NCBI GenBank assembly: GCA_904420615.1
Contig: CAJFVY010000038.1
Coordinates: 1-43,356 of the forward strand
DNA length: 43,356 nucleotides
DNA from: an uncultured Bacilli bacterium
GTDB lineage: Bacteria > Bacillota_I > Bacilli_A > RF39 > UBA660
Direction: 5' to 3'
Positions 10,541 through 31,620 of the stretch are shown in pieces (the stretch's first letter is position 1; the number at the start of each line of letters is the position of its first letter). The translations under genes and the position numbers were made by a program. The notes below the pieces were generated by a model. It was not told the DNA's origin and searched no databases. It was given only the letters and a program-made list of their open reading frames with translations.

Positions 10541-10579
10541 TATAACCCTCCTAATAGTTTGTAAGATAACTATAACATA

Positions 10580-10608
10580 ATTATAAGAATTATGGAACAC
10601 ATAAACAA
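10580..10608 (-). promoter_or_regulatory. Sigma-A-type promoter of the P-loop ATPase gene (TTGTTT-17-TATAAT)
   Basis: -35 TTGTTT (10603-10608), a 17-nt spacer and -10 TATAAT (10580-10585), about 40 nt upstream of the ATG at 10540. Confidence 0.5.
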
Positions 10609-12046: not shown

Positions 12047-12117
12047 TTTACTTTACCTCTTCATGATATATATTTCTCTTTCTTTCATAATAACATAACC
12101 AAAACTAACCTGCAATA

Positions 12118-13722
12118 TTAAATTGCAAAACAAACAATCATTTGTAATAGTACAAAAATATGAAGTAAAAGACTACCTTCTAGTAAATAATTATTATCTT
12201 GTAACTTCAATTTTAATTTTGACTTATTACCTATTAGAATCACACATAATACAAAAGCTAAATAATACCGTCCTTGTAAACCAACGATTTGTGGATTATC
12301 AACCGCAATAAAATTACTAGTGCATTGAATATAAATAGCAGTAGACAGTAATGCTAATACTCCTAATAATAATATACCAGTGAATACTTGATTTTTAACA
12401 GATAATTGTGTATTTTCGTACTTCTTATCTTTTTCTTTAATAAAGAACGAAATAATAACAATAATGATATAAGCAATAGAAATAAAACTATATACTGGCA
12501 ATTGAGAATGATACATATTAGTTCCAGCAAAAACATTTAATAATAAATTATTAAATTGTGACATATAAGTTCTAAATACAACTACAAAATAATCTAATAT
12601 GTTACCTAAAATATGTTCCTTTTGAACCGCTGTATTAACATAATAAGCATCAAAATATCTATTAGTAACTTGCATCCATAATAATCCAATAACACAACTA
12701 ATAACTATACAAGATAGTGTAAAAATTAATTTTTCCTTTTTAGATTTAAAATTATTAGATGATAGTAAAAATAATAAAAAGACAAATGGCAAATAAACAA
12801 TTTTACAAGCTGCTAAGAGAATACTTAAAACAAAATAAATAATTTTTTCATGAGTCTTTAAAGGAGTATTTTTATAACGATTATAAACGATCATCGTCAA
12901 GAATCCAAAAACAATCGCATTTAGAAAAGCATCAGCAGATAAAGTCGTAGCATTGGATAAAAGAACTGGTGATAGCAAAACCAACATTGCAAAAGTCTTT
13001 AACCGAGGTAATTTTTTTAAGAAAAATGTACAAATAGCTACATATGAAATTAAATTAAATAATCTTCCAAATTCTCCCATCCAAAATGGACCTAAGTTTA
13101 ATATTTTAGCAATCATAAAACCAATCACTTGAGGCAAATACTGAATAGGACAATATAGTGCTGTATTTGAATACTCGGTTGCATATTCTGTACCATATTG
13201 CATTACATTTTCTTCTTCTAAATCAACCTTCATCATATCTATTTCATCACTATACTTAATCATCGTATTGCGATTCACAGTTTCTTGTTCATTATTGGTA
13301 AAAGTGGTAACTAATGATTCTGGCAATTGATCTCCTACTATATCATTTTCTTGAACTGGTGTAATAAAATTACCCGTAGTTATTTCATAAATTCTATAAT
13401 AATGATTATGTTCATCACTACCTGTAAAAAGAGGAGATCCGACTAAATACATACTACCAAAGGTAAGAGCAATAATTGCAAAAACTATATGATGAGATAA
13501 CTTTTTATGTTTTATAAACTTAATAATTATTAAGAAAATAATAAAAATGACAATCCCAATAATAGCAATTCCTATTAAATATTTATTAGATGTAATACCT
13601 TGATCATTCAATTTTTCTTTCAAATCAAATATTGATAATAATAACATCAATAAAAAAGCAATGATATAATAGAAATATCTATTCTTAAATATATTAGTCA
13701 ATTTTTTTAACTTTTCTTTCAT
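12118..13722 (-). CDS. Polytopic membrane protein, DUF2142-like (GT-C-type glycosyltransferase candidate)
   Basis: 534 aa with about 12 TM. The extracytoplasmic loop motif 'GSPLFTGSDEHNHYYRIYEIT' resembles the DUF2142 signature. RBS is GGAGGA. Confidence 0.65.
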   Translation of the reverse strand: MKEKLKKLTNIFKNRYFYYIIAFLLMLLLSIFDLKEKLNDQGITSNKYLIGIAIIGIVIFIIFLIIIKFIKHKKLSHHIVFAIIALTFGSMYLVGSPLFTGSDEHNHYYRIYEITTGNFITPVQENDIVGDQLPESLVTTFTNNEQETVNRNTMIKYSDEIDMMKVDLEEENVMQYGTEYATEYSNTALYCPIQYLPQVIGFMIAKILNLGPFWMGEFGRLFNLISYVAICTFFLKKLPRLKTFAMLVLLSPVLLSNATTLSADAFLNAIVFGFLTMIVYNRYKNTPLKTHEKIIYFVLSILLAACKIVYLPFVFLLFLLSSNNFKSKKEKLIFTLSCIVISCVIGLLWMQVTNRYFDAYYVNTAVQKEHILGNILDYFVVVFRTYMSQFNNLLLNVFAGTNMYHSQLPVYSFISIAYIIIVIISFFIKEKDKKYENTQLSVKNQVFTGILLLGVLALLSTAIYIQCTSNFIAVDNPQIVGLQGRYYLAFVLCVILIGNKSKLKLKLQDNNYLLEGSLLLHIFVLLQMIVCFAI

Positions 13723-15064
13723 TTTTATCCTCCATCTTTTTCCAAATTACTACCAGTAAAAAATAAAAAATTAAAATATTAGCATATAAATAACGCACAT
13801 CATGAATAGGATTAGAAACTGCAACTATTAAAATATTTAATAAATTAGGTAAAACGATAAGTAAAGTTCTATAACAGAATTTATTAAATAAGAGCAACAT
13901 TATTATAATACTTAAATAAAAGTAAAAGGCAGGACTATAAAGAACCGTTTTCATAAATGAGTTATTTAATGTCTTATTTATTTGTGAATTAATTGTTTGA
14001 TATAAATTACTATTAAGATGATATGGTTTTAAATTATCATAGTTATTAGTACTACTAATATCAGTACTAAAAATCAATCCATAACCATCATCAGGAAATA
14101 TTGGATTCCAAATAAATGCTGTAGATGCTCCTGCAAATCTTATAAACATATCAGGATATTTAAGACTATATTTAAAGCATAATTTAATCATTTCCCATTC
14201 ATTTTCTTGATATTTCTCATGATCAATTGTACGATATGTATTATCAGAGAAAGTTGCATTATATTCTTGCTTTAATTCATCTATATCTGCTATTTCAGAA
14301 ATACTTTTCATATCCTCGGAAGTAATTTTATCTTTTGTTAAAAAATAAGATAAATATTGCATCACTTTAGGCTCTATTGCGTCTTTTTCATTATCTTCAA
14401 CATGATAAATTACATCTAAAGAAGAAATCAATAAAATAGCACCTATGGTTATGAATGGAACTTTAATAAACATATAACTAGTTTTATTTTTTTTATAAAA
14501 ATATACAATTAAAACAACTAATAAAATCATTACTACAAAAATACCATTAGATCTAATTTTAGCTAAAAAAGCTAAAGATAATCCTATAATAAATGCAAAA
14601 GAAGTAGTCCATTTAATTTTATTTTCTAAAATAAGTTGTATTAAAAAACATACTAATAATAAACTATAACTAAATAAAATATCCTTCCAAAGTGTTATAG
14701 AATATAAGAAATTAATAGGATTTACACAAATTATTACTGTTAATATAATTTGAAATATAAAATTTCTAGTACTTTGTTTCCCTCTATTATATTTACATAT
14801 CACGGTCCATAAAAAAGAAAAAAATAGTATTTGAAAAATGCCAATTATCATTGGATTATTCCATATTTTCAATAACAGCATCTCAATAAAGGTATGAAAA
14901 AAAGGATGCCAGTTGGTAAACTGTAACGACGATATTTGGTGTAATTGGTTATATGAATCATATGTTAATATCCCGGGTGCAAAAATATAAAGAAAAAATA
15001 GTAATATTCCGCAACTAATAAGAAAAATAATTATGTCTTCTTTTTTGATACTCTTAATTTTCAT
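13694..15064 (-). CDS. Second polytopic membrane protein, GT-C/DUF6020-like candidate
   Basis: About 12 TM, with a first-loop motif 'PGILTYDSYNQLHQISSLQFTNWHPFFHT'. The start is ambiguous: ATG at 15064 or GTG at 15109. It overlaps neighbours at both ends. Confidence 0.5.
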   Translation of the reverse strand: MKIKSIKKEDIIIFLISCGILLFFLYIFAPGILTYDSYNQLHQISSLQFTNWHPFFHTFIEMLLLKIWNNPMIIGIFQILFFSFLWTVICKYNRGKQSTRNFIFQIILTVIICVNPINFLYSITLWKDILFSYSLLLVCFLIQLILENKIKWTTSFAFIIGLSLAFLAKIRSNGIFVVMILLVVLIVYFYKKNKTSYMFIKVPFITIGAILLISSLDVIYHVEDNEKDAIEPKVMQYLSYFLTKDKITSEDMKSISEIADIDELKQEYNATFSDNTYRTIDHEKYQENEWEMIKLCFKYSLKYPDMFIRFAGASTAFIWNPIFPDDGYGLIFSTDISSTNNYDNLKPYHLNSNLYQTINSQINKTLNNSFMKTVLYSPAFYFYLSIIIMLLLFNKFCYRTLLIVLPNLLNILIVAVSNPIHDVRYLYANILIFYFLLVVIWKKMEDKNERKVKKID

Positions 15065-15905
15065 ATGGATAAGGGCCTTTCTTTCCTTTTTTAAAATCTC
15101 GATATCCACGATACATATTTCTTACTTTGCGATATTTATCTTTTTCGAATAATATAATATTCATAAGTTGACCACGTAATCCTCTTTTTAAGAAAGAACA
15201 GTAGTCTGGAAAATATTCTTTATATAAACTACAAACATAAAATGTATTTCTAACCATATAATATCTTCTAATATAATTATGATTGCTACAAACAAAATCT
15301 CTATGAAAATGATGTTTAACACATATATCTCCTAAATGATGTAATAATTCTATTTCGTTTAAGCGAGCTATATCGTAGTTATGAACATGAAGATTCATAC
15401 AATATTCTATATCAATACAATCAATAAATAACCACTCTTTAAAGCCACCTACTACTTTAAAAGCAGAAAGATTAATAATATTACCAGAAGTCATAACTTC
15501 TAACGGATGATCAATCTTTTCTTTTGGCTTTTTTACACCTGTATTTATAATATGCCAAGGACAAATTAATCCTAATTTGTCAGTGTTGTTTTTTTCTAGA
15601 TACTCTAGCATCTTTTTAATCTTAGTATTTACAAATTTGCTATCCTGGTCCATAGTAAGTAACCACTCAAAATCATCAGCTATAGCTCTTTTAGCTGCAT
15701 CATTTAATGCATAAGCTACTCCTTTATTTTCACCATATGATATGTATACTAATTTCTTACTGTTGGGTAATTTTTTTTTATTATCACTATGAGGAGAATT
15801 ATCAATAACGTATAGTTTTTTCAAACTCGATAAATATGACTCAATATTTTCTTTTATACCATCATCTGGTTGATATAAAACAACAACACCAGCCAGCTTA
15901 ATCAT
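15054..15905 (-). CDS. GT2 glycosyltransferase (rhamnosyl/glycosyl transferase-like)
   Basis: VVVLYQPD, VIDNSP and a LLTMDQDS (DxD-like) motif in 283 aa. RBS is AGGAGGGG. Confidence 0.8.
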   Translation of the reverse strand: MIKLAGVVVLYQPDDGIKENIESYLSSLKKLYVIDNSPHSDNKKKLPNSKKLVYISYGENKGVAYALNDAAKRAIADDFEWLLTMDQDSKFVNTKIKKMLEYLEKNNTDKLGLICPWHIINTGVKKPKEKIDHPLEVMTSGNIINLSAFKVVGGFKEWLFIDCIDIEYCMNLHVHNYDIARLNEIELLHHLGDICVKHHFHRDFVCSNHNYIRRYYMVRNTFYVCSLYKEYFPDYCSFLKRGLRGQLMNIILFEKDKYRKVRNMYRGYRDFKKGKKGPYPYEN

Positions 15906-18117
15906 TTTTACCCCTCCTAAATATTTTTTTAATTCGTGTTGGTATTTTTATTTTAGAAATCAATCTCCATTTTAAAGTATCAAACACCCAAGAATAATCA
16001 GCGTAAGAAACATAACTAACATAGGAGTCGTTCTTTCTAATCGCTTTACTAATCCAATCCCCATTTATTACTCTTTTAGATTTTTCTATCTCATTATAAA
16101 GTTTATCATAATCTTTACACATTTCTGATACAGTACGAATCTTATATTTAGCAATACTTTCTATTTTTTCTTCATAATCTTTAGGATTACTTAGTATTTC
16201 ATTGATCTTATCTAACACCGCCTGTGCTCTATCTGTTTGATTTAAATCAACAACCCATCCCAAGTTATCTTTTTCAACTCTTTCTTTTAGAGCACCACCT
16301 ACATTACTGACTAAAACAGGAATGCCACAAGCAATAGCCTCTGTTAAAGTATAAGAGTATGTCTCAGGACAAATAGATAATAAACAAATTAATTTAATAT
16401 TATTTTCTCGCAATAAAGAAGGCAGTTCTTCTCTTTTATATTGACCATGATCCGTAATTTTTTTTAACATTTTTTTAGTAAAAATACGATCAAATTTACC
16501 AAATAAATGCAATTTAAAATTAGTTACTCTTTTTTCAGTTAAAATATCATATAAAATATCACTACCTTTTATAACTCCTATTGCACCTAGAAAAGCAACT
16601 TGAAACTGTTCATTTTGATCATTAATATTTAATTTTCCGTTTACTTTTTTTATATCTATCCCATGCTCGATAATTTGTATTTTTAAATCTTTAAACGTCT
16701 TCTTTATTTCTTCTTTACAACTTTCTGTAGGAGCTATAATATGATTGCTTACATTGAATAAATCTTGCCACATACCACGCCAATCTTGTATCATATTTTG
16801 TTTGAAATTCAAGGTACGAGCTAAGCATTCTCGACATTGTTCGATCGTTCCTTCCCCGCAATAAGACTTATGACAATACATTTTATTTGTTAATGGACAA
16901 ACACTATAAAAATCATGTAATGAAACAGTCGTCCATAAATGATACTTTTTTATTATCTCTACCAAATCAAAATAGTGATACATCATATGATGAACATGAA
17001 TTCCATCAATAGCAAAATTCTTAACAATTTCTTCTACTATATTATAATAGTCATTATTGTATGACTGATAACTTCTACTATCATAAAAATGAGGAAAAGT
17101 TAAATGACTTACCGAATTAGTCCAATAAGAAGTCAAATGATATGTATTATCAACAGGAGCTAATACATGAAAGTTATATTTATGACGTAATTTTTTTATA
17201 ATATCATAAACATGCAATGTCGTACCACCTAAATGATTTTCAACATCATGAAAATCATGAATGATAATTAAAATATTTCGCTTTAGATTTTTTTTGTCCC
17301 TCATCGCAAAGGCTATATTATCACCTATATACTTTAATGGAAAAGCTCTACACCAAGCATTTAATCTTTCAGTATAAACAGGATATCTTTTTTTTAAAGC
17401 TTCTTCACCTGAGTGCATTAATGCTATTTTACTATCCGAAAAAGACTGTGATTCTTTATGAAAAACATAAGCATTATCACATAAAAGATGGCGATAACCA
17501 CAATCAAGGCATCTAAAACAAAAATCATTTTCTTCACCATAACCTTTGCCAAAGGTTACTTCATCAAAATATCCTAATTTATTTAAAACGTCTCTTTTTA
17601 TATATAGACAGAATCCATGACCAGTTGGTAAATCAGGATAAGAAAAATAGGAACATTCATCTACAATTTTGGCCATATCGTTAATAGTTAGACTATTTGG
17701 TAACTCATTTTTTTTAAAAGGAACAGGAACACTAGCCATAGTAGCATTATTAGATAATGGAGTTACTGTAGCAATTTTAGGGCCACTATAAGCACACTTT
17801 TTTATATAATCTAACCAATTAGGGGTAACAACTGTATCAGAATTCAATAATAATACATCATTCTTATCCGATAATTGCATCCCAACATTCACAGTACCTA
17901 CAAAACCCTTATTTTCAGTATTTTCAAGCACAATTAAATCTTTATATTTTTTCTTATATTTATTTAATAATGGCATAATTCTATCATCAGTGCTTTTATC
18001 ATTAATTAAAATCAGCCTATTTTCTTTTAAATCAGTATATTTCAATACAGATTCAACACATTCAATTACACATTCATATGCATTATAAATGGGAACGATT
18101 ACATCACATTTTGTCAT
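15898..18117 (-). CDS. Two-domain glycosyltransferase: N-terminal GT2 plus C-terminal GT4/GT-B-like (polymerase candidate)
   Basis: The N-terminus has DVIVPIYNAYE, INDKSTD, LLNSDT and a YGEENDF motif (GT2). The C-terminal half has 'ETYSYTLTEAIACGIPVLVSNVGG' (GT4 E-x7-E region). I chose the ATG at 18117 with GAAGAGGTG upstream. Confidence 0.8.
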   Translation of the reverse strand: MTKCDVIVPIYNAYECVIECVESVLKYTDLKENRLILINDKSTDDRIMPLLNKYKKKYKDLIVLENTENKGFVGTVNVGMQLSDKNDVLLLNSDTVVTPNWLDYIKKCAYSGPKIATVTPLSNNATMASVPVPFKKNELPNSLTINDMAKIVDECSYFSYPDLPTGHGFCLYIKRDVLNKLGYFDEVTFGKGYGEENDFCFRCLDCGYRHLLCDNAYVFHKESQSFSDSKIALMHSGEEALKKRYPVYTERLNAWCRAFPLKYIGDNIAFAMRDKKNLKRNILIIIHDFHDVENHLGGTTLHVYDIIKKLRHKYNFHVLAPVDNTYHLTSYWTNSVSHLTFPHFYDSRSYQSYNNDYYNIVEEIVKNFAIDGIHVHHMMYHYFDLVEIIKKYHLWTTVSLHDFYSVCPLTNKMYCHKSYCGEGTIEQCRECLARTLNFKQNMIQDWRGMWQDLFNVSNHIIAPTESCKEEIKKTFKDLKIQIIEHGIDIKKVNGKLNINDQNEQFQVAFLGAIGVIKGSDILYDILTEKRVTNFKLHLFGKFDRIFTKKMLKKITDHGQYKREELPSLLRENNIKLICLLSICPETYSYTLTEAIACGIPVLVSNVGGALKERVEKDNLGWVVDLNQTDRAQAVLDKINEILSNPKDYEEKIESIAKYKIRTVSEMCKDYDKLYNEIEKSKRVINGDWISKAIRKNDSYVSYVSYADYSWVFDTLKWRLISKIKIPTRIKKIFRRGKND

Positions 18118-18118
18118 T

Positions 18119-18886
18119 TTACACCTCTTCTGCAAATCCTTTTTCTAATTTCTTAAATATTTTAATTCCTATAAATAATAAAATAATACTAAAAGCTAAG
18201 ACACCAAATAATTGAACAAAATTTGGTAATTGGTGATAATATAGAATATCCCTATAACTGTTAATAATAACAGCTAATGGATTTAGGTTTAGTACCCAAG
18301 CAATACTCCGCGGGAATAAGTCTGCTGAATATATAATAGGTGTTGCATAAAAAAGCATATTTACAATAAAGTTAATAATATATTCTGCATCACGTACATA
18401 GACATTAATAGCACTAGTAATAAATACTAACCCCAAAGTAAATATATACTGAGCCAAAATAACTAGAGGAAAAACAATTAATGTTAAGCTAAATCCAATT
18501 CCTGAAAAAATCAAAAATATAGCAATAATTAAACAACCAATTACAAAATTAACTAATGCACTAGTTACCACAGAAATTGGTAAAATCTCACGTGGAAAAT
18601 AAACTTTTTTAATAATACCTCCATTAGCAATAACGGTAGTCGTACCTTGAGATATTGCAGTCGTAAAAAAAGTCCACGGTATGATACCAATAATCAAAAA
18701 TGTTACATAATGTGGTTGTGTACTCTTTAAAATAAGTGGAAAAACAATCGCATATACTAAAACACTTAATAACGGATTCACAAAAGACCATAATATTCCA
18801 AGAAAAGAACCTTTATATTTTCCTCTTATTTCTTTTCTTATATTACTTTTTAATAATTCACGATAATGATATAATTCTTTAATCAT
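18119..18886 (-). CDS. ABC-2 type polysaccharide/teichoic-acid export permease (Wzm/TagG-like)
   Basis: 255 aa with 6 TM and an ABC-2 permease N-terminus 'YRELLKSNIRKEIRGKYKGSFLGILWSFVNPLL'. Confidence 0.85.
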   Translation of the reverse strand: MIKELYHYRELLKSNIRKEIRGKYKGSFLGILWSFVNPLLSVLVYAIVFPLILKSTQPHYVTFLIIGIIPWTFFTTAISQGTTTVIANGGIIKKVYFPREILPISVVTSALVNFVIGCLIIAIFLIFSGIGFSLTLIVFPLVILAQYIFTLGLVFITSAINVYVRDAEYIINFIVNMLFYATPIIYSADLFPRSIAWVLNLNPLAVIINSYRDILYYHQLPNFVQLFGVLAFSIILLFIGIKIFKKLEKGFAEEV

Positions 18887-18895
18887 AATACACCT

Positions 18896-19636
18896 CTACC
18901 CACATACTTTTAAGTATTCATCAACTACTTTGTTTGCTTCATCATCCATTCTGATTTTGCCATCATAAAGCCAAACAGCACGATCGCATAAATTTCTAAC
19001 GGAGTTTAAATTATGCGTAACAATAACAATAGTTCGATCACTTTTCTTTAATTGTTCTAATTTTTTAAAACATTTATCTTGAAAGTGTTGATCACCAACA
19101 GCCAAAATTTCGTCAATCAATAAGATTTCTGCATCTACATTGATAGCTATAGAAAAAGCAAGTCTCATATATTGCCCAGAAGAATAAGTTCTAACAGGAT
19201 TATCAATAAACTCTTCTAATTCAGAAAAACTTAATATTTCATTGAATCTAGCATCTATTTCTCTAGCAGAAAGGCCAAAAATGGCAGCATTGAAATATAT
19301 ATTCTCTCTACCAGTAAAATCAGGATGAAATCCAGCTCCTAATTCCAAAAGGGAAGTTAACTTACCATGAGTTTTAATACTCCCTTCCGTTGGATAAATA
19401 ATCTTAGTCATTAATTTTAATAAAGTTGACTTACCACTACCATTAGTACCAATTAAAGCTACAGTTTCCCCTTTTTTTATTTTCAAGTTAATATCATTTA
19501 ATACAACTCTTTCTTCAGTTTTAGTTTTATTCCAAAATACTAATCTTTCTTTTAAAGTAGCAGCCTTATCATAATATATCTTAAACTTTTTTACTACATG
19601 CTCTACTTCGATTGCATAATCTGTTTTTTTGACCAT
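18896..19636 (-). CDS. ABC export ATPase (Wzt/TagH-like), nucleotide-binding domain only
   Basis: Walker A GTNGSGKST, signature SSGQYMRLAF and Walker B LLIDEILAVGD. At 246 aa it has no C-terminal carbohydrate-binding extension. Confidence 0.88.
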   Translation of the reverse strand: MVKKTDYAIEVEHVVKKFKIYYDKAATLKERLVFWNKTKTEERVVLNDINLKIKKGETVALIGTNGSGKSTLLKLMTKIIYPTEGSIKTHGKLTSLLELGAGFHPDFTGRENIYFNAAIFGLSAREIDARFNEILSFSELEEFIDNPVRTYSSGQYMRLAFSIAINVDAEILLIDEILAVGDQHFQDKCFKKLEQLKKSDRTIVIVTHNLNSVRNLCDRAVWLYDGKIRMDDEANKVVDEYLKVCG

Positions 19637-19681: not shown

Positions 19682-22600
19682 TTAATACTTTTTGTATGAT
19701 ATATCTAGATCTACTGTTCCATTAATCCCAGATACAGTACCACTAGATGTATATTGCCACATATGATAAGCACCAGTATAATCTGTTCCATTATTAACAG
19801 GATCAGTAGTATTATTATAATGAGCTACCCAAACATCATATTCTGAAAGTACATTCATATCTAAATTATCATATAAAAATGACTTACTGGCATAGATCAT
19901 AGGAGTATAGCCGGCATTCTTAATAGTATCTAAAAATGCTTTTGCTACTTTAGTACGCTCCTCCTTAGTTAAGTTATCAGCCCTACCATTTGGTCTTGCT
20001 TCTGTAAATTCTGTATCAAAAACAATTGGATATGTTATTTGATCTCCTATCATTGATAAACTGATATTAGAAAGCACATAATTTGCTTCTTCAATCGCTT
20101 CTTGTTCTGTAATAGCTTGGCTATAAAAATATAGCCCTAAATCAATATCATTTTGTATAACTCCCCTGATATTATTCTGATACTGCAAATCTAAATTCAG
20201 ACTGCCAGTACCATAACCTCTAAAACCTAATCTAACCACGGCAAAATCAATGCCTTCTTTTTTTACAGTAGACCAATTAATATTACCTTGATAATATGAG
20301 ACATCTACACCAAAATATACATTATTATATACCACAATCTTTTTAGTTATTTCTGTTATCTGTTCATTTAATTTAGAATATAGCCTAACAGTAAGTATAT
20401 GGTCTCCGGTACTAATATTAGATAAATCTAAATACGTACTAAATCCAGGAGTCGCATTTACAGTTTCATCACCATAACCTGTAACACTTGATATTACATC
20501 TCCCCTAGGACTTCTTTCAACTGTTAAATTCATGTCCTTACCATCAAGATAAACTTTAATATAAGAATTATCTAATTCTGACATTTCCCATCCAGATATA
20601 GTAAAGCCAGTATTAAATAGACTTCGTGTTGGTGTTTCTAAATGAATAATTCCATCATATTTTTTCAAAGTTATATTTTTCTTTGCAGTGGTAATAATAT
20701 CATTTGTCTTATTATCTACTACTCGTAATTCTAACGTATGTATTCCATCAGCATAACCACTCATATCACAAGATATAGAATATCCAGGAGTTGGATTAGT
20801 GTTTTTCCCACCATAGCCACTAATAGCATTCAAAACATCATTTCTGTTTGTTCTTTTAACTTGATAATCACTGACTTCTCCATTATCTATATATATTTTT
20901 AAACTATAATCCGTCCCGCTTGTCATCAACCAACCTGTCATGGATAAAGTAGTATCTACGGTACTAACAGAGTCTGGACTTTCTATTACTCCAATACCCT
21001 CATATTTTTTTACTGTAATTGTTTTTCTTGACTCAGCCAATATTTCACCTGTTAAATCATCAACTACTCTAACAGTGACTGTATGGGTTCCATCTTTTAT
21101 TACTGTTGTATCTATAGTAGTTTCAAATCCAGGAGTTGGATTAATATCTTTTCCACCATAACCACTAATAGCATTCAAAACATCATTTCGATTGGTTCTT
21201 TTTATATTTTCATACTCTGCATCATCAAGCAATACTTTTACGCTTGCATTAGCATCTGTGGTCATTACCCAACCAGTAACCTTTAAACTAGTAGTAATAT
21301 TGCTTGTAGATGGCTCTTCAACAGTAAGTCTAGATCTATACTTATCTAAATGAATAGTTTTACTTGTTTCAATCATTACTGAATTAGTATTAGCATCAAT
21401 CACTCTTACTTTTATCGTATGTGTACCATCCTTAATAGCACTTAAATCAATTGTTGCCTTAAAACCAGGTGTTGGATTAACAGTAGCATCACCATAATCA
21501 CTAATAGCACTCAAAACATCATTTCGTCTTGATCTAGTTACATCTACAATCTCATCATTATCTAAAAAAACTTGAATCTGAGCATCCTCATTAACACTCA
21601 TCAACCAACCACCAACCACTAAACTATTTCCAGTAACATTAGCAATCGATGGCTCCTCTACATTCAAAAGGGAGCGATATTTTTCTAACACTATATTCCG
21701 ATTAATTTCTTCTAATACTTCATTAGTAGAATTATTTATCACTTCAATTTTCAAATGATGAATCCCATCATCAAAACTACTTAAATCTACTATTTGTTCA
21801 AAACCAGGTGTCGGGTTAACAGTTGCATCGCCATAACCTGTAACAGCTTTTAAAACATCTGCTCTTTTTATTCTTGAAAATTCTTCTAACGCTATATCAT
21901 CAATAGAGGCTCTTACAGTAATAACATCACTACTAGCCATTAACCAACCGTTTACTTTTAACTCGGTTCCTCTTACCACATTACTAGAAGGACTCTCTAA
22001 ATTTACTTTATATTTATATTTTTCTAAAGTGATTTGACTCGTATATTGTTCCATAATTTCATCTGTATTTACGTCATATAATTGAACTGTAATATTATGC
22101 TTGCCATCAGAATAATTTGTGGCATCTATAGTCGTTTTAAAACCAGATTGTGGGTTAACATCAAATCCTCCATAACCCTTTACAGCATTAATCACATCTT
22201 GACGATGATAACGATTGATACCTGTTATTTCTTCATTATCAATATAAACCCTTGCAGTAGCATTCGGATTAGTACTCATTACCCAACCGCCAATTGTAAT
22301 ATTAGTTCCCACAACAGAAAGACTAGGTTCTTCTACTGTCATAATCGATTCATATTTTTTTACTTCAATTACTTTGCTTGTTTCTTCTAAAACTTGATTG
22401 TTTTCATTTACAACCTGCACAACAAGCGTATACTTACCATCTTTATAATTTGTTAAATCTAATTCTTTCTCAAAGCCAGGTGTCGGATTAACAGTAGCAT
22501 CACCATAGCCTGTGACAGCAGTTATAACATCCGCTCTACTGCTTCTTTTAATATCTGTTATCTCTTCATTGTTAAAATATATACGAACACTAGTATTCTC

Positions 22601-22768
22601 TTCTATGCTCATAGCCCAACCACCAATATTTAAAGAAGTATGAGCATAATTGGTATTTGGAAACTCCAAATTTAATAATGTTGTGCTAGATGCATTAACT
22701 GTGTTATAACCTACAATAATTAATATAGTTATCAAACAAAAAATAAATATACGCATTTTAACCTTCAT
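19682..22768 (-). CDS. Secreted GH25 muramidase (lysozyme) preceded by seven tandem ~112-aa modules
   Basis: Signal peptide (cleavage near VNA/SS). Seven repeats each carry GW-x-M, R-x-DV and GYG-x5-NP-x-PGF motifs. The C-terminal ~215 aa carry the GH25 motifs YFGVDVSYYQGNINW and VFDTEF. The start is uncertain: 22768, 22756 or TTG at 22780. Confidence 0.85.
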   Translation of the reverse strand: MKVKMRIFIFCLITILIIVGYNTVNASSTTLLNLEFPNTNYAHTSLNIGGWAMSIEENTSVRIYFNNEEITDIKRSSRADVITAVTGYGDATVNPTPGFEKELDLTNYKDGKYTLVVQVVNENNQVLEETSKVIEVKKYESIMTVEEPSLSVVGTNITIGGWVMSTNPNATARVYIDNEEITGINRYHRQDVINAVKGYGGFDVNPQSGFKTTIDATNYSDGKHNITVQLYDVNTDEIMEQYTSQITLEKYKYKVNLESPSSNVVRGTELKVNGWLMASSDVITVRASIDDIALEEFSRIKRADVLKAVTGYGDATVNPTPGFEQIVDLSSFDDGIHHLKIEVINNSTNEVLEEINRNIVLEKYRSLLNVEEPSIANVTGNSLVVGGWLMSVNEDAQIQVFLDNDEIVDVTRSRRNDVLSAISDYGDATVNPTPGFKATIDLSAIKDGTHTIKVRVIDANTNSVMIETSKTIHLDKYRSRLTVEEPSTSNITTSLKVTGWVMTTDANASVKVLLDDAEYENIKRTNRNDVLNAISGYGGKDINPTPGFETTIDTTVIKDGTHTVTVRVVDDLTGEILAESRKTITVKKYEGIGVIESPDSVSTVDTTLSMTGWLMTSGTDYSLKIYIDNGEVSDYQVKRTNRNDVLNAISGYGGKNTNPTPGYSISCDMSGYADGIHTLELRVVDNKTNDIITTAKKNITLKKYDGIIHLETPTRSLFNTGFTISGWEMSELDNSYIKVYLDGKDMNLTVERSPRGDVISSVTGYGDETVNATPGFSTYLDLSNISTGDHILTVRLYSKLNEQITEITKKIVVYNNVYFGVDVSYYQGNINWSTVKKEGIDFAVVRLGFRGYGTGSLNLDLQYQNNIRGVIQNDIDLGLYFYSQAITEQEAIEEANYVLSNISLSMIGDQITYPIVFDTEFTEARPNGRADNLTKEERTKVAKAFLDTIKNAGYTPMIYASKSFLYDNLDMNVLSEYDVWVAHYNNTTDPVNNGTDYTGAYHMWQYTSSGTVSGINGTVDLDISYKKY
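20327..22681 (-). repeat. Seven in-frame tandem coding repeats (~330-345 bp each) within the GH25 gene
   Basis: Repeat boundaries are at about aa 34, 144, 256, 369, 482, 594 and 709, ending at aa 818. YGDATVNPTPGF occurs verbatim three times (R1, R3, R4). KRTNRNDVLNAISGYGGK occurs twice (R5, R6). Near-identical DNA stretches occur near 21465-21508, 21805-21848 and 22476-22520. Confidence 0.85.
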
Positions 22769-22792
22769 TTTATCACCCAATCCTTTTTAATC

Positions 22793-22821
22793 ATTATACA
22801 ATTAAATTCATCATTACTCAA
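22793..22821 (-). promoter_or_regulatory. Sigma-A-type promoter upstream of the GH25 gene (TTGAGT-17-TATAAT)
   Basis: -35 TTGAGT (22816-22821), a 17-nt spacer and -10 TATAAT (22793-22798), about 25 nt upstream of the ATG at 22768. Confidence 0.5.
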
Positions 22822-22836: not shown

Positions 22837-23958
22837 CTAGAAATTTTTAATATATCTTTTAAAGGATTCTGAAATTCTTCTTACAAAATGTAAATGAGAT
22901 ATAAAACTAAAAATTCTCTGTCTTAACCATTCAATTATAGCACAAGCAATAAAGATTAAAATTGCTAAAACAAATATTCTAATTGGCAATAAAGATGAGG
23001 TCATATTTTCAATTGTATCGAATCCTATAAAATGATAGAAGAAGGAATATACATGATGATTTTCATGAATTAAATAAACTCCCAATACTAAGGCACTAAT
23101 ACTATTAATGATTTTACTTTTAATAGTAAGTGTTCTAAAATATAAAAAATAGAAAATGCTGCTTAATATAATAAGCGGATTACTAAAAGAAGTTTGAAAA
23201 ACGCTGTACATACTGGCAAGTTCTGAAGCATATAAATTTTGAACAGTATCTAAAGAACTAGTCAAATTAAACATCAAAAAATTGATAAAACCAAAGATTA
23301 AAAATAAACTTAAAAAAATAATTTGCTTTTTATTATGAGAATAATTTTTAAAATGAATATTTTCATCTATTGGATATTTACGAAGATAAGCTCCAATAAT
23401 ATACAACATAACAAAATTAATTAATGTAGATCCATGATTACTAACTAAAGTATTACTACTTAATAAAGCAATAATAGAAAAAAGAAAGAATAAAATTAAA
23501 ATCAATTTACGGTGTTGTTTCTGATCCATATTTTTAATTAATTTATTTAAGTATGGTACTAGAAAGCATAAAATCAAATAACAATTAATAAACCAATAAT
23601 CAGTACTATAAAGTGGTAATATTTCTCTTATAAAACTTATAGAATCTATTTGTGAAAGTCCAAAAATAACAAAGATAATAACTATTAACGCTTTATAAAA
23701 CCATCTCATATTAAAAATAGATAATATTTTTTTAAAAGAAATAGTAGTTTTATTATATTGAAAGTATCCTGTTAAAAGGACAAATGAATTAACATGAACA
23801 CTAATTAAAATATATATAAATTGTATCATTAAATTCATTATTCCTGTTGTTGACTCTCTAATTCCTGAATGAATAATAATGTGCCATATAATAATAAAAA
23901 TCATAGATACAATACGCATTAACTCAAAATTAGATTGTCTTTCTTTTTTTACTGACAT
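22837..23958 (-). CDS. Acyltransferase family 3 (membrane O-acyltransferase, AT3)
   Basis: About 10 TM with an N-terminal 'RQSNFELMRIVSMIFIIIWHIIIHSG' AT3 signature including the conserved His. I chose the ATG at 23958 with GGGGGAGAG upstream. Confidence 0.8.
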   Translation of the reverse strand: MSVKKERQSNFELMRIVSMIFIIIWHIIIHSGIRESTTGIMNLMIQFIYILISVHVNSFVLLTGYFQYNKTTISFKKILSIFNMRWFYKALIVIIFVIFGLSQIDSISFIREILPLYSTDYWFINCYLILCFLVPYLNKLIKNMDQKQHRKLILILFFLFSIIALLSSNTLVSNHGSTLINFVMLYIIGAYLRKYPIDENIHFKNYSHNKKQIIFLSLFLIFGFINFLMFNLTSSLDTVQNLYASELASMYSVFQTSFSNPLIILSSIFYFLYFRTLTIKSKIINSISALVLGVYLIHENHHVYSFFYHFIGFDTIENMTSSLLPIRIFVLAILIFIACAIIEWLRQRIFSFISHLHFVRRISESFKRYIKNF

Positions 23959-23988
23959 ATGATGCTCTCCCCCTACTATATACATTAA

Positions 23989-25839
23989 TCAATAAATTGA
24001 TCTATCAACCAGTTGAATCTTTCTTCTAAATGGTCTTAAGTTAGAAAAATCTGGTACCACTAAATGTACTTTTAAAACTTTTTGTTCATAATCTTCACCA
24101 TATTTATATAATAAAATACAAGCTCGATGTTGTCCATCTAAAATGATATTTTTTTCATTAATAACCAATATATATTTTTCATTATAACCATTCTTATTAA
24201 TACTTCTGATTAACTCATTAAATCTTTCTTCTGTCATGCTTGGCAAGTTATGTTCTTCATGAAATTTTGTATATTTTTTATAACTTTCTTTATCTCCACA
24301 CAAAAATAAATATGGTTCACATTCTTTTAATGAAATAATATTTCCATAGAAGTATTGCCTTTTTATTTCTTTTAATTTTATCTTTTCGACATGATAATCC
24401 AAAACTAACGATGGTTCTAAAGTCATCCACACAAAATCATCATTAAATATAAATCTTTTATCAGCAATTATTTTTTTAGTACTAAATTGACTTAAATACT
24501 TTTCTAATCTATACCATTTTAAATGACGATATCTATCAGCCTTTATTCCATAAAATTTATAATTTTGATTAGAAACGGAAATACAAATCAATCTTTCCAT
24601 AGCATGTGCAAAAGAAAAGAAACCACGTTCTGTTTGTTCGAAATCGTTTAATGATAAATGTAATAGTTGTATATCTTTTAAAAGTGATGCTCTAAGAGCA
24701 AAACAAGATCCAGCTACAAATTTATAAGAATCGGGTATAGAATAATTTAAATGTTTTAACCTTTGTTTTACCAAAGAAACTTTATGTAATGGATCATGAA
24801 TAATTAAATTATCAGCAGCTACTAATCCATAATGATTATCATTTGATAAAATATCTATCATTTTATGAACAGAAAAACTACCTAATAAGCCATTGAATAA
24901 GTTACAAAACCAATCTCTTTTACAAAATATTTGATCATAAACATAAATTTTCTTATTAGTACCTTTTGATTGTAATTTTAATACAATATCATAATCATCT
25001 AAATTAACATCTTTTAATATCTCAAAAAATGGCCCAATATCATAACCAAAATTTTCACATTCTACTAGCCTTACATCTTTTTTATATTGTTTTAGCTCTT
25101 CAAATACTAAAGAAGCATCAGAATTTTTAATATATGTTACAGTTAAATCATAATTATAGCAATCCAAATTTTTTAAATATTCTTTAATTTCTTTAAAACT
25201 ATTTGTATAAAAAAGATGTAAAATAACTAAAATTTTCTTATTTTTATTTTTCTTTATATAAGAATGACAACAAAATCTAGCTAGCTTTCGTTTTAACCAT
25301 CTTGTTATTTTATAAGAGTGATAAGTTCCACTATTTGTAATAATAGGAGCAATCGTTCTATTTTCATATTTTCCATGTAATTCATAATGGATTAAAGGAT
25401 TCATATTTAAAGAAGCAACATCTTGATTTGCATCTAAATAAGACTTTGTATCAAATAATGGTGATGGATTATATCCTTTCTTATATCCTATCGTTAAATA
25501 ATGGAAAGCAGGATCCACATCTTTATCTTTTAAATATAATTTTGTGTAATAATCTTTATCAAAATATGTTGAAAGAGAAATAATTTCAGTAAATTCCCTT
25601 TCCAATATTTTATCTTTGTTTTCTATACTAGAGCTCATTATACTTAAAACTTCATTTCTCTTCTTTTCCTGTTTTTGAATCATTAATTTTTCTTTCATAT
25701 CTTTTAAATTCCTAACAAAAACTACAATATTAGGAAACTCCTCCCATAAATTTATAAGCAAACATAATACCCAATAAAATATCAAAAAACATGCCCATGA
25801 TAAATATATTTTAACAAAAATTACTAGACACTTCAACAT
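23989..25839 (-). CDS. RgpF-like (rhamnan synthesis protein F family) glycosyltransferase with an N-terminal TM anchor and a C-terminal DGQHR module
   Basis: The core 'ILVILHLFYTNSFKEIKEYLKNL...ENFGYDIGPFF' resembles the RgpF family. An N-terminal motif reads 'FDxxxYLxxNxDV...NPLxHYxxxG'. The C-terminus reads 'NGYNEKYILVINEKNIILDGQHRACILL'. The start is uncertain: ATG at 25839 or TTG at 25854. Confidence 0.7.
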   Translation of the reverse strand: MLKCLVIFVKIYLSWACFLIFYWVLCLLINLWEEFPNIVVFVRNLKDMKEKLMIQKQEKKRNEVLSIMSSSIENKDKILEREFTEIISLSTYFDKDYYTKLYLKDKDVDPAFHYLTIGYKKGYNPSPLFDTKSYLDANQDVASLNMNPLIHYELHGKYENRTIAPIITNSGTYHSYKITRWLKRKLARFCCHSYIKKNKNKKILVILHLFYTNSFKEIKEYLKNLDCYNYDLTVTYIKNSDASLVFEELKQYKKDVRLVECENFGYDIGPFFEILKDVNLDDYDIVLKLQSKGTNKKIYVYDQIFCKRDWFCNLFNGLLGSFSVHKMIDILSNDNHYGLVAADNLIIHDPLHKVSLVKQRLKHLNYSIPDSYKFVAGSCFALRASLLKDIQLLHLSLNDFEQTERGFFSFAHAMERLICISVSNQNYKFYGIKADRYRHLKWYRLEKYLSQFSTKKIIADKRFIFNDDFVWMTLEPSLVLDYHVEKIKLKEIKRQYFYGNIISLKECEPYLFLCGDKESYKKYTKFHEEHNLPSMTEERFNELIRSINKNGYNEKYILVINEKNIILDGQHRACILLYKYGEDYEQKVLKVHLVVPDFSNLRPFRRKIQLVDRSIY

Positions 25840-25893
25840 ATTCACTTTAATCAAATTTAAATTAATTTTATATTTATTCTAGTTTTAAACTTT

Positions 25894-26752
25894 TTATTCA
25901 TGCATAATATTTCTTAAATATCGATTATCATGAATCATATAAATACCAAGTGTTAGCTTAGAAATACGATTAATTAACTTCGACTTTATCTCAAATGTTT
26001 CAAATAGTAAGAAAAAGGAAATAGCTTGAATAATCACAATAGAATTATTATATAGGATACTTATATGAATAAAATTATTAGCAACTTCATTAATAATAGA
26101 ATTAGCAGCTAACAAGGGATGTACTTGTTCTAAATATCAAATAATTACTAATGACGCATGTTATAAGAAGAAAAATAATATCAATCTTAATAAATTCTTA
26201 GAACGATGCCTAAATAAATAACTCTTAGAAATTGATATCTTCTTAAATAAGCTCCAATAAAATATAAAAATACAAAATTATATAAAGTATAACCAGTATT
26301 ATCAAAAGCATGATTTCCAGTAAGATATCGAATAATAAAAAATAAAACAAACGATATTAACAATTCTGATACGATTTTTTCTAAAACATTAATATAGATT
26401 TATATTTAAAACAAAAAATTTTTTTAATAAATCAACTTTAGATAAGCTTATATAACCTAAAACTGTCAAAATAATTACAATTATTATTCGATAAAAATAT
26501 TAGCATTAATTAAACGCAATAATTTCAATTACCTAATTTTTATTTTAATTGAAAATAACCAATAATTAAAACAAAAGAGTTCACATGCATGATTGTAATA
26601 AATTCTAATTACATAAAAATAAGAACTAATCCTTCGCTAGTACAATGTTCAATTATCTTACCATGATAGATAAAATGATAAAGTATAATCATAAACATAC
26701 TAACAATTCTTAATAATTTAAAGTTTGACAGTTTTGCATCTTGCTCTTTCAT
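25894..26752 (-). pseudogene. Decayed paralogue of the acyltransferase-3 gene (multiple stops and frameshifts, 3'-truncated)
   Basis: The ATG at 26752 has AGGTGA upstream. The translation MKEQDAKLSNFKLLRIVSMFMIILYHFIYHG..IFM*LEFITIMHVNSFVLIIGYFQLK* aligns with the intact gene (NFELMRIVSMIFIIIWHIIIHSG / VHVNSFVLLTGYFQ). Later fragments in other frames also align: YRIIIVIILTVLGYISLSKV, NFVFLYFIGAYLRRY, and the last ORF KSKLINRISKLTLGIYMIHDN against KSKIINSISALVLGVYLIHEN. Confidence 0.85.
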
Positions 26753-26845
26753 TTTGTTCACCTATATATAATATATAACATAAAAAATCTTATTTTATTA
26801 TAGAATAATTCAACCAAAATAAATTTTTAATTTAAAATCACAAGT

Positions 26846-28033
26846 CTATTTTTTGAATTTAGCTCTAATAAATCTTAATGGCTTAGTAATTTTCCAAGAA
26901 AGGCTATTATAAATTGTTTCTATATCTACTTCTAACTGATGCATTTTTTTGTTAAGATCTAATAAGTTTGTTTCTATTTTATTTTTTTCTAAAGTAATAT
27001 TATTAATAATATTAAAAAGTTCTTTCTTATTTAAATCCTTAATATCCATAGTTATAATAATATGACTACCTTTCTTAATTTTTTTATTAATAATAACTTT
27101 AGGATCATTACTATTACTAACATAGTAATTTTTATAGAATAGAAAATCTTGCCATATTAATTCCTCCGGAGTTACTCCTTTTATATTTATTACCTTAAAA
27201 GCTACTCCAAAAGCATCTGTCAAATCAAGTCTTAATTTATTTAAATTTTCTGTTATATTAAGATCTAAAATATATAAATTTTCTTTAATTAAGTATTTAA
27301 AATTATCTCGATCTTGTTCGTTAAAATCCTTACCTCTATCATAATATACTTGATACGTTTTATCAAATTTATCTTTATTATGAGGAGTATGTTCTAAATA
27401 ATCATTACGCCATACATTCAAAGGTATTACTTTAACGGGTAATTTTGTTTTAGAAAGACAATACATAAAACTTAACTGATCTCTTTTACTATACTTTAAA
27501 ATCATCTCAAACCATAATTTCATAGTCTTTTTAACTAAAGGATGATTATGCCTTTTAATAATTAAAGTCATTTCTAATAAACCTAAATTGTCTTTAAAAT
27601 TCTCTTTTTCGTAAAACTTTAATTGTTTTTTAATTATTTCTTCTTTATCCTTTCCTTTAACTATACAAGCTTCAGCTTCTTCTTTTATCGATGATCTAAC
27701 ATTATGCTTACATGCTGCGAATAAATCTTTTTTTACATCAAAATATTTCTTTAAAAATTCCTTTACACTTTTTTTAAATATAATAGAAGCATCTATATAA
27801 ATGCTAAGTGTATAATTTTGATCTAGATATGGATCACCAATCATTTTAAGTTTTCTAGATAAATAATGATTATCTAATTTTTTATCTTCTACATAGATAA
27901 TCTTCCAAGTTTTAGAGTTAATATTTCTATTATTAGTAAAGCAAATATAATCGATTCCTTCTTCTTGTATTTTTACTTCTTTTAAATCATCATAATCACC
28001 AGTGATACAAGTATAAACACAAATTTTTTCCAT
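26846..28033 (-). CDS. DUF616-like glycosyltransferase with a C-terminal coiled-coil tail
   Basis: The N-terminal 'ICVYTCITGDYDDL' resembles the DUF616 signature. The last ~60 aa are heptad-like (LEKNKIETNLLDLNKKMHQLEVDIETIYN) and are followed by SLSWKITKPLRFI. I chose the ATG at 28033. Confidence 0.65.
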   Translation of the reverse strand: MEKICVYTCITGDYDDLKEVKIQEEGIDYICFTNNRNINSKTWKIIYVEDKKLDNHYLSRKLKMIGDPYLDQNYTLSIYIDASIIFKKSVKEFLKKYFDVKKDLFAACKHNVRSSIKEEAEACIVKGKDKEEIIKKQLKFYEKENFKDNLGLLEMTLIIKRHNHPLVKKTMKLWFEMILKYSKRDQLSFMYCLSKTKLPVKVIPLNVWRNDYLEHTPHNKDKFDKTYQVYYDRGKDFNEQDRDNFKYLIKENLYILDLNITENLNKLRLDLTDAFGVAFKVINIKGVTPEELIWQDFLFYKNYYVSNSNDPKVIINKKIKKGSHIIITMDIKDLNKKELFNIINNITLEKNKIETNLLDLNKKMHQLEVDIETIYNSLSWKITKPLRFIRAKFKK

Positions 28034-28034
28034 A

Positions 28035-29342
28035 TTAAATTTTTCTCCTACCAATTGAATAATAATGAATTTTAGCTTTTTCTACTTCCTTTAAATCATA
28101 ACAATTTCTACCATCATAAATGTATGGTGTCTTCATAAGTGTCTTATAATTTGATATTGGATATTCTTTAATTTCCTTTGCTTCTGTCATAATGAAAACC
28201 AAATCAGCATTTATTATTGCCTCATCAATAGAAGAATAATATTCTACTCGATCTTGAAATTTATTTTTGAAATTTTCAATAGCTATAGGATCATAAACAC
28301 GAACAATAGCTCCATGTTCTAATAGTAGTTCAACATTATCAATAGAAGGTGCCTCTCTTAAATCATCAGTATTTGGCTTAAAAGATAATCCTAACATGGT
28401 AACTATTTTTCCTCTTATATTTTCTTTAAAATCTGAATAAGCTTCTAAAAACAACTTAATCTTTTGATTTTTATTGACTTCAATACAAGCCTTTATAGTT
28501 TTAAGCTCACAATCAATAGATTTACTTAACCAATGAAGAGCTTTTGTATCTTTTGGAAAACAACTACCACCATAACCAATACCAGCATTTAAAAACTTAG
28601 AACCAATTCGGCTATCATAACTCATTCCTTTGGTAACTTCTGTAATATCAGCACCAATTTTCTCGCAGAAATTAGCAATCTCATTAATATAAGATATTTT
28701 TAAAGCTAAAAAATCATTGGATGCATATTTCACCATTTCAGCACTTTTACGATCCATTACTAAGTATGGTGCACAATAAGGCTCTATAGTAAGTGGATGA
28801 TATAAATCAGCCATTACTTTCTTACTATAATCATCTTCTATTCCAACCACAATACGAGAAGGATATAAAGTATCATGAACTGCCGTTCCTTGTGCTAAGA
28901 ATTCAGGATTAGAAGCAACATAAAAATGAATAGGACTATCTTGATTTAACCATTCTTCAATATCATCATTTGTGCCAATTGGGACCGTTGACTTAATCAC
29001 TACCACTTTATCATCTTTAGATACTTCTTTGATTTGCTTACAAACAGTATAGACATAATCTAAATTAGCGGAACCATCAGATCTCTCTGGTGTCCCTACT
29101 CCTACTATTATCACATCAGCTTTAGGATATGCTTCATGGTAATCCAAAGTATAAGTAAGATGCTCTTTATTTTTATGCATTAACTCTTCTAAATCAGCTT
29201 CATAAATGGGGCTTTTCCCTTTTTTTAAACATTCAATCTTGTTCTTATCTACATCAACACAAGTTACTTGATGACCAATTTCTGCTAAACAAACAGCCGT
29301 TACTAATCCTACATAACCTGTTCCTGCAACTGCTACTTTCAT
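28035..29342 (-). CDS. ugd: UDP-glucose 6-dehydrogenase
   Basis: MKVAVAGTGYVGLV Rossmann motif and GGSCFPKD carrying the catalytic Cys, in ~435 aa. I chose the ATG at 29342 with AGGAG upstream. Confidence 0.92.
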   Translation of the reverse strand: MKVAVAGTGYVGLVTAVCLAEIGHQVTCVDVDKNKIECLKKGKSPIYEADLEELMHKNKEHLTYTLDYHEAYPKADVIIVGVGTPERSDGSANLDYVYTVCKQIKEVSKDDKVVVIKSTVPIGTNDDIEEWLNQDSPIHFYVASNPEFLAQGTAVHDTLYPSRIVVGIEDDYSKKVMADLYHPLTIEPYCAPYLVMDRKSAEMVKYASNDFLALKISYINEIANFCEKIGADITEVTKGMSYDSRIGSKFLNAGIGYGGSCFPKDTKALHWLSKSIDCELKTIKACIEVNKNQKIKLFLEAYSDFKENIRGKIVTMLGLSFKPNTDDLREAPSIDNVELLLEHGAIVRVYDPIAIENFKNKFQDRVEYYSSIDEAIINADLVFIMTEAKEIKEYPISNYKTLMKTPYIYDGRNCYDLKEVEKAKIHYYSIGRRKI

Positions 29343-29354
29343 ATTTATCAACTC

Positions 29355-30329: not shown

Positions 30330-30373
30330 TTTTTAATCCTCCTGTAAAAATTTATCACTACTTAAAACTTATT

Positions 30374-31594: not shown

Positions 31595-31620
31595 AATACC
31601 ACTCCCAACATTCATCTTAG

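Follow-up and report, generated by a model that had tools for sequence, protein, structure and literature searches.

A seven-module GH25 muramidase from an uncultured Bacilli bacterium: a candidate autolysin guided by the wall polymer of its own locus

How a secreted muramidase is kept on the cell wall, and whether it reads the polymer made by the genes that surround it, is the question raised by a locus from an uncultured Bacilli bacterium (Genome Taxonomy Database lineage Bacteria; Bacillota_I; Bacilli_A; RF39; UBA660). The window, i.e. the whole stretch of DNA analysed here, is contig CAJFVY010000038.1 of assembly GCA_904420615.1 and is 43,356 nucleotides (nt) long. Its minus strand carries a gene for a GH25 muramidase with seven tandem modules, embedded in a cluster for a wall glycopolymer. 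A preliminary description, made from the sequence alone, proposed that this enzyme is an autolysin whose repeats are targeted to the polymer made by the surrounding genes. From comparative evidence and a characterised precedent, we consider it reasonably likely that the protein is a polymer-guided autolysin, in which the array would position the GH25 muramidase on the wall polysaccharide made by the locus. Both that ligand and that role are presumptive.

The open reading frame (ORF) called on the minus strand occupies 19682-22780 and starts with TTG at 22780, giving 1032 amino acids (aa). The ATG at 22768 is the likely start of the gene. A Shine-Dalgarno-like sequence, AAAGGATTGGGTGA, can be read immediately 5' of it (22773..22786, minus), and the resulting coding sequence (19682..22768, minus, stop codon 19682-19684) yields a product of 1028 aa, to which the database protein P0001, also of 1028 aa, is 100% identical. 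The translation opens with what reads as a Sec-type signal peptide, MKVKMRIFIFCLITILIIVGYNTVNA followed by SS (22688..22768, minus), and no lipobox, LPXTG signal or second hydrophobic segment can be read in it. Seven modules of 111-114 aa are arranged in tandem over aa 35-822 (module positions are given in the 1032-aa numbering of the TTG start). The modules were delimited by anchoring on their GWxM motif and have pairwise identities of 31-51%. All on the minus strand, they are M1 (22346..22678, aa 35-145), M2 (22007..22345, aa 146-258), M3 (21668..22006, aa 259-371), M4 (21332..21667, aa 372-483), M5 (20993..21331, aa 484-596; chosen for structure modelling), M6 (20651..20992, aa 597-710), and M7 (20315..20650, aa 711-822), which is a distinct subtype with no linker before the GH25 barrel. 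The GH25 catalytic domain forms the C-terminal 210 aa (19685..20314, minus, aa 823-1032). The ORF, the module alignment, and PF01183 together confirm the architecture given in the preliminary description, namely a 1028-aa protein with a signal peptide, seven modules of ~112 aa, and a C-terminal GH25 domain. The repeated peptide blocks listed there are also found in the array, YGDATVNPTPGF three times and KRTNRNDVLNAISGYGGK twice. A DNA pattern for DV..A...YG....N..PG[FY] has six matches in the window, all within the muramidase gene, and none in shuffles.

The catalytic domain matches PF01183 over the full profile (positions 1-180 of 180; E 7.9e-35; 121 bits vs a cutoff of 27). It also aligns over its full length with LytC of Streptococcus pneumoniae (PDB 2ww5), its best match in both sequence and fold. 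The motifs DVSYYQG and FDTEF, which had been read from the translation, are both present and align with the catalytic Asp and Glu of LytC, with VDVS and FDTEF opposite IDIS and YDVEN. In this alignment D826 and D922-x-E924 (1032-aa numbering) are the LytC catalytic residues, and the aligned Glu of the D-x-E is the residue changed to Gln in the LytC mutant entry 2wwc. Across 26 sequences D116, D212, and E214 (numbering of alignment A3) are invariant. These comparisons support the prediction that the window protein is a secreted GH25 N-acetylmuramidase with an intact catalytic motif. An AlphaFold2 model of M7 together with the GH25 domain (predicted local distance difference test score, pLDDT, 95; predicted TM-score, pTM, 0.89) gave LytC, Psm, SleM, cellosyl, Ply40, and Cpl-1 as the top Foldseek matches (E 1e-17 to 1e-8). 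The model suggests that M7 is rigidly docked onto the barrel.

The likeness to LytC extends to the order of the domains, since both proteins have an N-terminal repeat array and a C-terminal GH25 domain. In LytC and LytA, the repeats bind to phosphocholine, which decorates a secondary wall polymer (choline teichoic acid). However, the LytC array is built from choline-binding hairpins of ~20 aa (CW_binding_1), a repeat type with no match in the window protein, and the LytC gene is not in a polymer locus, unlike the window gene.

On the other hand, the families nearest to the GH25 domain are of endolysin type (phrog_291, E 3.7e-50) and the enzyme is secreted without an anchor, as might be expected of an antagonistic lysin that is secreted against competing gut bacteria and recognises foreign wall polymers through its array. 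We consider this very improbable, since the gene has a conserved place in the cluster for the producer's own wall polysaccharide and no immunity gene or toxin-delivery context was seen. Also, the modules match no PHROG family, and a pattern search of viral contigs did not find them (of 55 pattern matches in IMG/VR, 0 were confirmed by tblastn).

The window protein has no lipobox, LPXTG signal or other wall-binding domain, which leaves the array as its sole candidate means of retention on the wall. In the polymer-guided reading, the enzyme would be exported via Sec with neither a covalent nor a membrane anchor, and the N-terminal Ig-like array would hold and position it in the wall. The partners of the module family were surveyed in 222 retrieved members with 239 non-module regions, of which 116 are GH25. 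The other partners of the arrays are Amidase_3, Peptidase_M14, GH73 glucosaminidase, Peptidase_C39_2, VanW, GDSL, and subtilase, and the arrays in the family have 2-9 modules. ChW and SH3_3 repeats sometimes accompany the arrays and their catalytic partners. The same fusion spectrum is seen in 135 module-bearing ORFs of species-representative genomes. Such combinatorial fusion to peptidoglycan hydrolases is classically the mark of a wall-targeting repeat.

Some members of the family have other arrangements. In a metagenomic polysaccharide cluster (L128:5498-11267), a 798-aa GH25 protein is encoded beside a 1088-aa VanW protein that carries the same modules, among rhamnose, GLF, and glycosyltransferase genes. 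In seven other loci (L051, L069, L017, L092, L111, L071, and L080), GH25 or GH73-like hydrolases have one or two modules scattered among ChW repeats and not adjoining the catalytic domain. The idea that a ChW array replaces M1-M6 upstream of an M7-GH25 unit was rejected, as most ChW/GH25 proteins have a single module interspersed among ChW repeats.

The modules had been described as unassigned and, by eye, as Ig-like beta-sandwiches that belong to none of the LysM, SH3b, CW_binding_1, CWB2, SPOR, and PG_binding repeats. The fold and the exclusions both agree with the structure model and the Pfam scans. The AlphaFold2 model of M5, built on a 75-sequence alignment, is a confident Ig-like beta-sandwich (pLDDT 94, pTM 0.83) with two short helices and a loop (residues ~47-67) inserted between strands. 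Foldseek searches of PDB and BFVD with this model returned only generic Ig-like/E-set matches with a TM-score of ~0.6. Neither the whole protein nor any single module has a Pfam match at E<=1 to LysM, SH3_3/SH3_5, CW_binding_1, CW_binding_2, SPOR, PG_binding_1, ChW, SLH, CW_7, GBS_Bsp-like, GW (PF13457) or DUF5776 (PF19087). A profile search of PDB sequences with the modules gave insignificant OspA beta-sheet matches only.

The term "unassigned" holds at Pfam thresholds, where the single modules reach no family's cutoff and none exceeds 16 bits for DUF6941, DUF7668 or any Ig-like family. The matches of the whole protein to DUF6941 (56 bits) and DUF7668 were discarded because they are sums of weak, out-of-register partial matches. 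Big_7 (PF17957) also misses its gathering cutoff of 24.1 bits, with 11.5 bits for the whole protein and 14.4-14.5 bits for the best single modules. Beyond these thresholds the term does not hold, because intermediates connect the modules to Big_7. The module-derived profile A1 matches three distant members (P0188, P0138, and P0170; E 1e-55 to 1e-88) on strong Big_7 repeats, and the same repeats score 150-240 bits as Big_7. The two profiles also agree in register, as in P0170, where the A1 match covers 1240-1323 and the Big_7 match 1240-1320. Since the window profile and Big_7 match the same repeats in these distant members, the modules are best understood as remote Big_7 relatives. The Ig-like sandwich and the motif skeleton P..GW...D......R.DV....Y....G[FY]..D....G.H are common to both, whereas the window modules have a longer GYGxxxxNPxPGF loop and Big_7 has no assigned wall-binding function. 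From these sequence relationships, the window modules appear to be a divergent Big_7-like subfamily, distinguished by the longer loop and lying below current Pfam thresholds.

The family is large. An exhaustive profile search found 1473 clusters (at 50% identity) with E<=1e-3 and 250 with E<=1e-30, and all 150 proteins among the matches listed have at least two matched stretches. A word-index search with the module alignment A2 returned a single fragment. A giant protein of 6040 aa, P0215, whose gene is on a 1.14-Mb contig, contains 36 stretches that partially match the C-terminal half of the module profile. It may be related to the repeat as an adhesin-like protein. The sole cultured carrier seen is Carnobacterium gallinarum, a distant family member whose protein WP_051933985.1 (RefSeq) is identical to P0188. 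This protein has seven Big_7-type repeats between GH73 and Amidase_3, a layout like that of the Atl-type autolysins (amidase, repeats, glucosaminidase). In staphylococcal Atl, the wall-targeting repeats lie between the two catalytic domains, a position equivalent to that of the C. gallinarum repeats. The Atl repeats have a GW/SH3-like fold whereas the repeats of the window family are Ig-like, and the window protein has a single catalytic domain.

Conservation was counted over 716 modules of the 222 proteins. Fourteen positions are kept in at least 80% of the modules, namely P6, G19, W20, D35, R47, D49, V50, Y57, G58, N63, P66, G67, G80, and H82. Eight of these lie inside the 47-67 helix/loop insert and not in the core strands, which is the pattern expected of a ligand site and not of the sandwich core. 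In the proposed mechanism, the conserved R-x-DV...GYG....NPxPGF insert is the likely contact surface. M1-M6 would together bind, multivalently, the secondary wall polysaccharide that the surrounding cluster produces, and M7 would stay docked on the catalytic barrel. The physiological role of the enzyme would be wall remodelling or autolysis.

The same array could in principle be a passive stalk, in which seven Ig-like domains, themselves without specificity for a ligand, act as a rigid or semi-rigid spacer that carries the catalytic domain across a thick layer of polysaccharide. The fold is indeed a generic Ig-like/E-set sandwich, Big_7 relatives occur in fibrillar adhesins and chitinases, and a conserved copy number of seven would suit a length requirement. 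However, a stalk leaves the protein with no retention mechanism, as it has no LPXTG signal, lipobox, transmembrane segment or other wall-binding domain. The strongest conservation falls on the insert (Arg, Asp, Tyr, and Asn), and the arrays of the family are found almost only on wall hydrolases. We consider a purely mechanical role improbable.

The muramidase gene lies between the ABC exporter and the AT3 acyltransferase of the glycopolymer locus, as the preliminary description stated. The genes from ~6.7 kb to 32.5 kb are all on one strand, and the features given below are on the minus strand. Downstream, the gene is adjoined by that of the ATP-binding cassette (ABC) ATPase (18896-19636). This downstream part of the cluster (10639..19636) encodes the ABC ATPase, an ABC-2 permease, a fusion of glycosyltransferase (GT) families GT2 and GT4, a GT2, the membrane proteins DUF6020 and DUF2142, a further GT2, and GtrA. 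Upstream, across a 68-nt gap, it is adjoined by the AT3 acyltransferase gene (22837-23985). The upstream part (22837..31615) comprises the AT3 acyltransferase, an RgpF-like protein, a degraded AT3 copy, a TOD1-like GT, UDP-glucose dehydrogenase, an epimerase, and a GDSL/SGNH protein. The cluster is flanked by mraZ, mraW, and penicillin-binding protein genes on one side and by the genes for PPDK, IF-2, and NusA on the other. Judged by its gene content, it is an ABC-transporter-dependent wall-glycopolymer locus with predicted functions in side-chain glycosylation and O-acylation.

This location is retained among the relatives examined. In all seven independent homologous loci examined (those of P0002, P0006, P0008, P0011, P0013, and P0021, and of the GH25 gene of L128; 38-69% identity where measured), the GH25-module gene lies inside an ABC-type wall-polysaccharide cluster with AT3, TOD1 or ABC genes as neighbours. 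Of the 59 ORFs in species-representative genomes that combine GH25 and modules, 39 are accompanied, within an 8-kb slice, by a homologue of one of the cluster genes. When loci L001-L005, L126, and L128 are set beside 10639-31615 of the window, the ABC transporter and the muramidase are common to them and AT3 is present in most. The sugar-nucleotide genes vary between loci, with RmlABCD (dTDP-rhamnose) in some loci, UDP-galactopyranose mutase and a DegT aminotransferase with an ATP-grasp protein in others, and UDP-glucose dehydrogenase in the window. This variation suggests a serotype-like diversification of the polymer in the lineage.

In six pairwise comparisons of homologues, identity is 35-67% for the module array, 47-82% for GH25, and 67-90% for the ABC ATPase. 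The comparison supports a faster divergence of the module array than of the catalytic domain. In L004, the ABC ATPase and permease are closer than those of L001-L003, yet the muramidase is the most divergent and the sugar chemistry is different. This pattern gives only a hint that the enzyme may track the polymer type.

Two characterised autolysins can be compared with the window protein in this respect. AtlA of Streptococcus mutans is a modular autolysin with Bsp-like repeats, unlike the window modules, and its gene is not known to lie in the polysaccharide cluster. AtlA depends for its cellular positioning on the state of a wall polymer, the serotype c rhamnopolysaccharide (bioRxiv 10.1101/2020.06.26.173716). 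The second system is EpaU/AtlE (EF2174) of Enterococcus faecalis, a GH25 muramidase whose gene is found systematically in the variable region of the epa cluster (PMC12208459; PMC13343894). The repeats at its C-terminus (GW or DUF5776) differ from strain to strain and bind teichoic-acid-like decorations made by the locus, and efficient, strain-specific lysis requires them (PMC12208459; PMC13343894). Like EpaU/AtlE, the window protein is a GH25 N-acetylmuramidase encoded in the cluster for an ABC-exported wall polysaccharide, has repeats far more variable than its catalytic domain, and is secreted and not covalently attached. For EpaU/AtlE, a binder that reads the polymer of neighbouring genes has been shown experimentally, whereas for the window protein we infer it.

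The two proteins also differ in several respects. The EpaU/AtlE repeats are C-terminal to GH25 while those of the window protein are N-terminal to it, and the GW/DUF5776 repeats of the former are unrelated in family and fold to the Big_7-like Ig sandwiches of the latter. EpaU/AtlE also has a Ser/Thr-rich disordered N-terminal region that is absent from the window protein. The hosts are E. faecalis and an uncultured low-G+C gut lineage of Bacillota, respectively. The N-terminal repeats and the lack of a GW or DUF5776 match make the window protein an analogue of EpaU/AtlE and not its orthologue. As the polymer locus itself contains the gene for the enzyme, we propose that the binder and its ligand are inherited and diversified together, as in EpaU/AtlE.

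Several observations weigh against this proposal. The same type of module is found on hydrolases outside polysaccharide loci, such as the M14 peptidase P0058, which has eight modules and is encoded in a housekeeping context, so the ligand could be a generic wall component. Modules are not more alike within a genome than between genomes (best module identity of 0.48 between different proteins of one genome vs 0.54 between different genomes), which gives no sign of genome-specific co-adaptation and was a negative result for genome-specific homogenisation. For Big_7 relatives elsewhere, the only descriptions are of auxiliary Ig domains in chitinases and adhesins, and relaxed constraint alone also predicts that repeats diverge faster than catalytic domains. 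Finally, the close subfamily has so far been found exclusively in metagenome-assembled genomes (MAGs) of uncultured organisms.

The first two of these observations would also fit a generic wall anchor. In that case, the modules would bind peptidoglycan or another ubiquitous wall component, and the position in the locus would reflect only the co-regulation of wall synthesis and remodelling. Such an anchor would account for the occurrence of the family on many different peptidoglycan hydrolases, some of them in housekeeping contexts. It would also account for motif residues that are kept across the 716 modules from genomes with differing loci. It is less easily reconciled with an array that diverges much faster than the catalytic domain, and with a GH25 member that is consistently located within loci of varying glycosyltransferase content. 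Also, no binding of the EpaU/AtlE repeat domain to naked peptidoglycan sacculi was observed (PMC13343894). We consider a generic anchor rather unlikely, and the polymer-guided autolysin is retained as the preferred reading.

A stable array is also part of the picture. The preliminary description had interpreted identical peptide blocks and near-identical DNA stretches between modules as signs of ongoing recombination or copy-number change. The comparison of copy number across relatives does not support this, since all 16 full-length homologues tested have seven modules. All seven keep their positional order in the 69%-identical homologue and six keep it in the 56%-identical one, and 14 of the 16 homologues conserve M7 in its position. 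The constant copy number and conserved order indicate that the array is old and stable in the orthologue group. As for the DNA, one near-identical stretch exists, a 76-nt block with 89% identity between M5 and M6, while all other blocks have 61-74% identity. Within the M5/M6 block 13 of 18 codons are identical vs 9.6 expected from codon usage, and a recent gene conversion between these modules was not adopted on this weak excess. Tandem Repeats Finder detected no array in the DNA because the copies are too diverged.

The gene had also been credited with a promoter of its own. The promoter-like hexamers TTGAGT-17-TATAAT are indeed present (22793..22821, minus) in the 68-nt gap between the AT3 and muramidase genes. 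However, the number of such sites in this 28% G+C region is that expected by chance (143 found vs 159 in shuffles), so the match is no evidence for a private promoter. No terminator-like site was found flanking the muramidase gene. A private promoter is therefore possible but not supported. Within the degraded AT3 copy is the region's best match to a promoter, TTGATA-17-TATAAT (26305..26277). This copy occupies the ~1-kb gap between the RgpF-like and TOD1-like genes (25855-26845, minus), where three short ORFs in different frames encode AT3-like pieces, LLRIVSMFMIILYHFIYHG, FVFLYFIGAYLRRY, and LTLGIYMIHDNRY. From these pieces, the AT3 gene at 22837-23985 probably had a second copy here that has been frameshifted and degraded. 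Between a lactate/malate dehydrogenase-like gene and GtrA, a 343-aa P-loop ATPase is encoded (9569-10600, minus). It has weak matches only, to AAA_16 and, at ~25 bits and far below cutoff, to the NCBIfam Sll1717-family ATPase and the anti-phage DS41_1 model. No match was obtained when the window was scanned for Rfam families and tRNAs.

The distribution of the close subfamily was determined in species-representative genomes with a hand-made degenerate DNA pattern, which gave 119 pattern matches. Apart from L006, these are from uncultured gut MAGs of human, rabbit, sheep, goat, chicken, mouse, and roe deer, labelled as Bacilli, Clostridia, Tenericutes, Clostridium sp. CAG:389/451/575, and Candidatus Onthousia. 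The closest species representative is 55% identical. L006 (Terrimonas) is the only one of the 119 matches with no module ORF and is probably a chance match. Two short contigs with a module-GH25 gene, L103 (a Muribaculaceae MAG) and L120 (a Lachnospiraceae MAG), are probably binning errors.

The principle of a co-encoded ligand and hydrolase is already established by EpaU/AtlE (2025-2026), and what is new here is a different repeat family in an uncultured lineage. If the array reads the locus polymer, this principle would extend from enterococci to an abundant uncultured gut lineage, and the unrelated Ig-like repeat would point to convergent evolution. More broadly, we tentatively suggest that the GYG....NPxPGF-type Big_7-like module may be an unrecognised family of wall-polysaccharide lectins. 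It would serve as a general wall anchor of this lineage of uncultured gut Bacillota (MAGs labelled Bacilli, Clostridia or Tenericutes, including Candidatus Onthousia and Clostridium sp. CAG bins), with the seven-module GH25 enzyme as the locus-encoded reader of each species' polymer. If this is true, the EpaU/AtlE principle had a second, independent origin based on an unrelated fold, and Gram-positive wall polysaccharide loci may follow it as a general design rule. Recognition of the locus polymer by the array, if confirmed, would also supply a functional label for a repeat family of more than 1000 clusters (at 50% identity) that automated annotation now leaves blank or marks with faint Ig-domain matches. 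The arrays could then be used as species- or serotype-specific wall probes, or as the targeting domains of engineered lysins against organisms that have not yet been grown.

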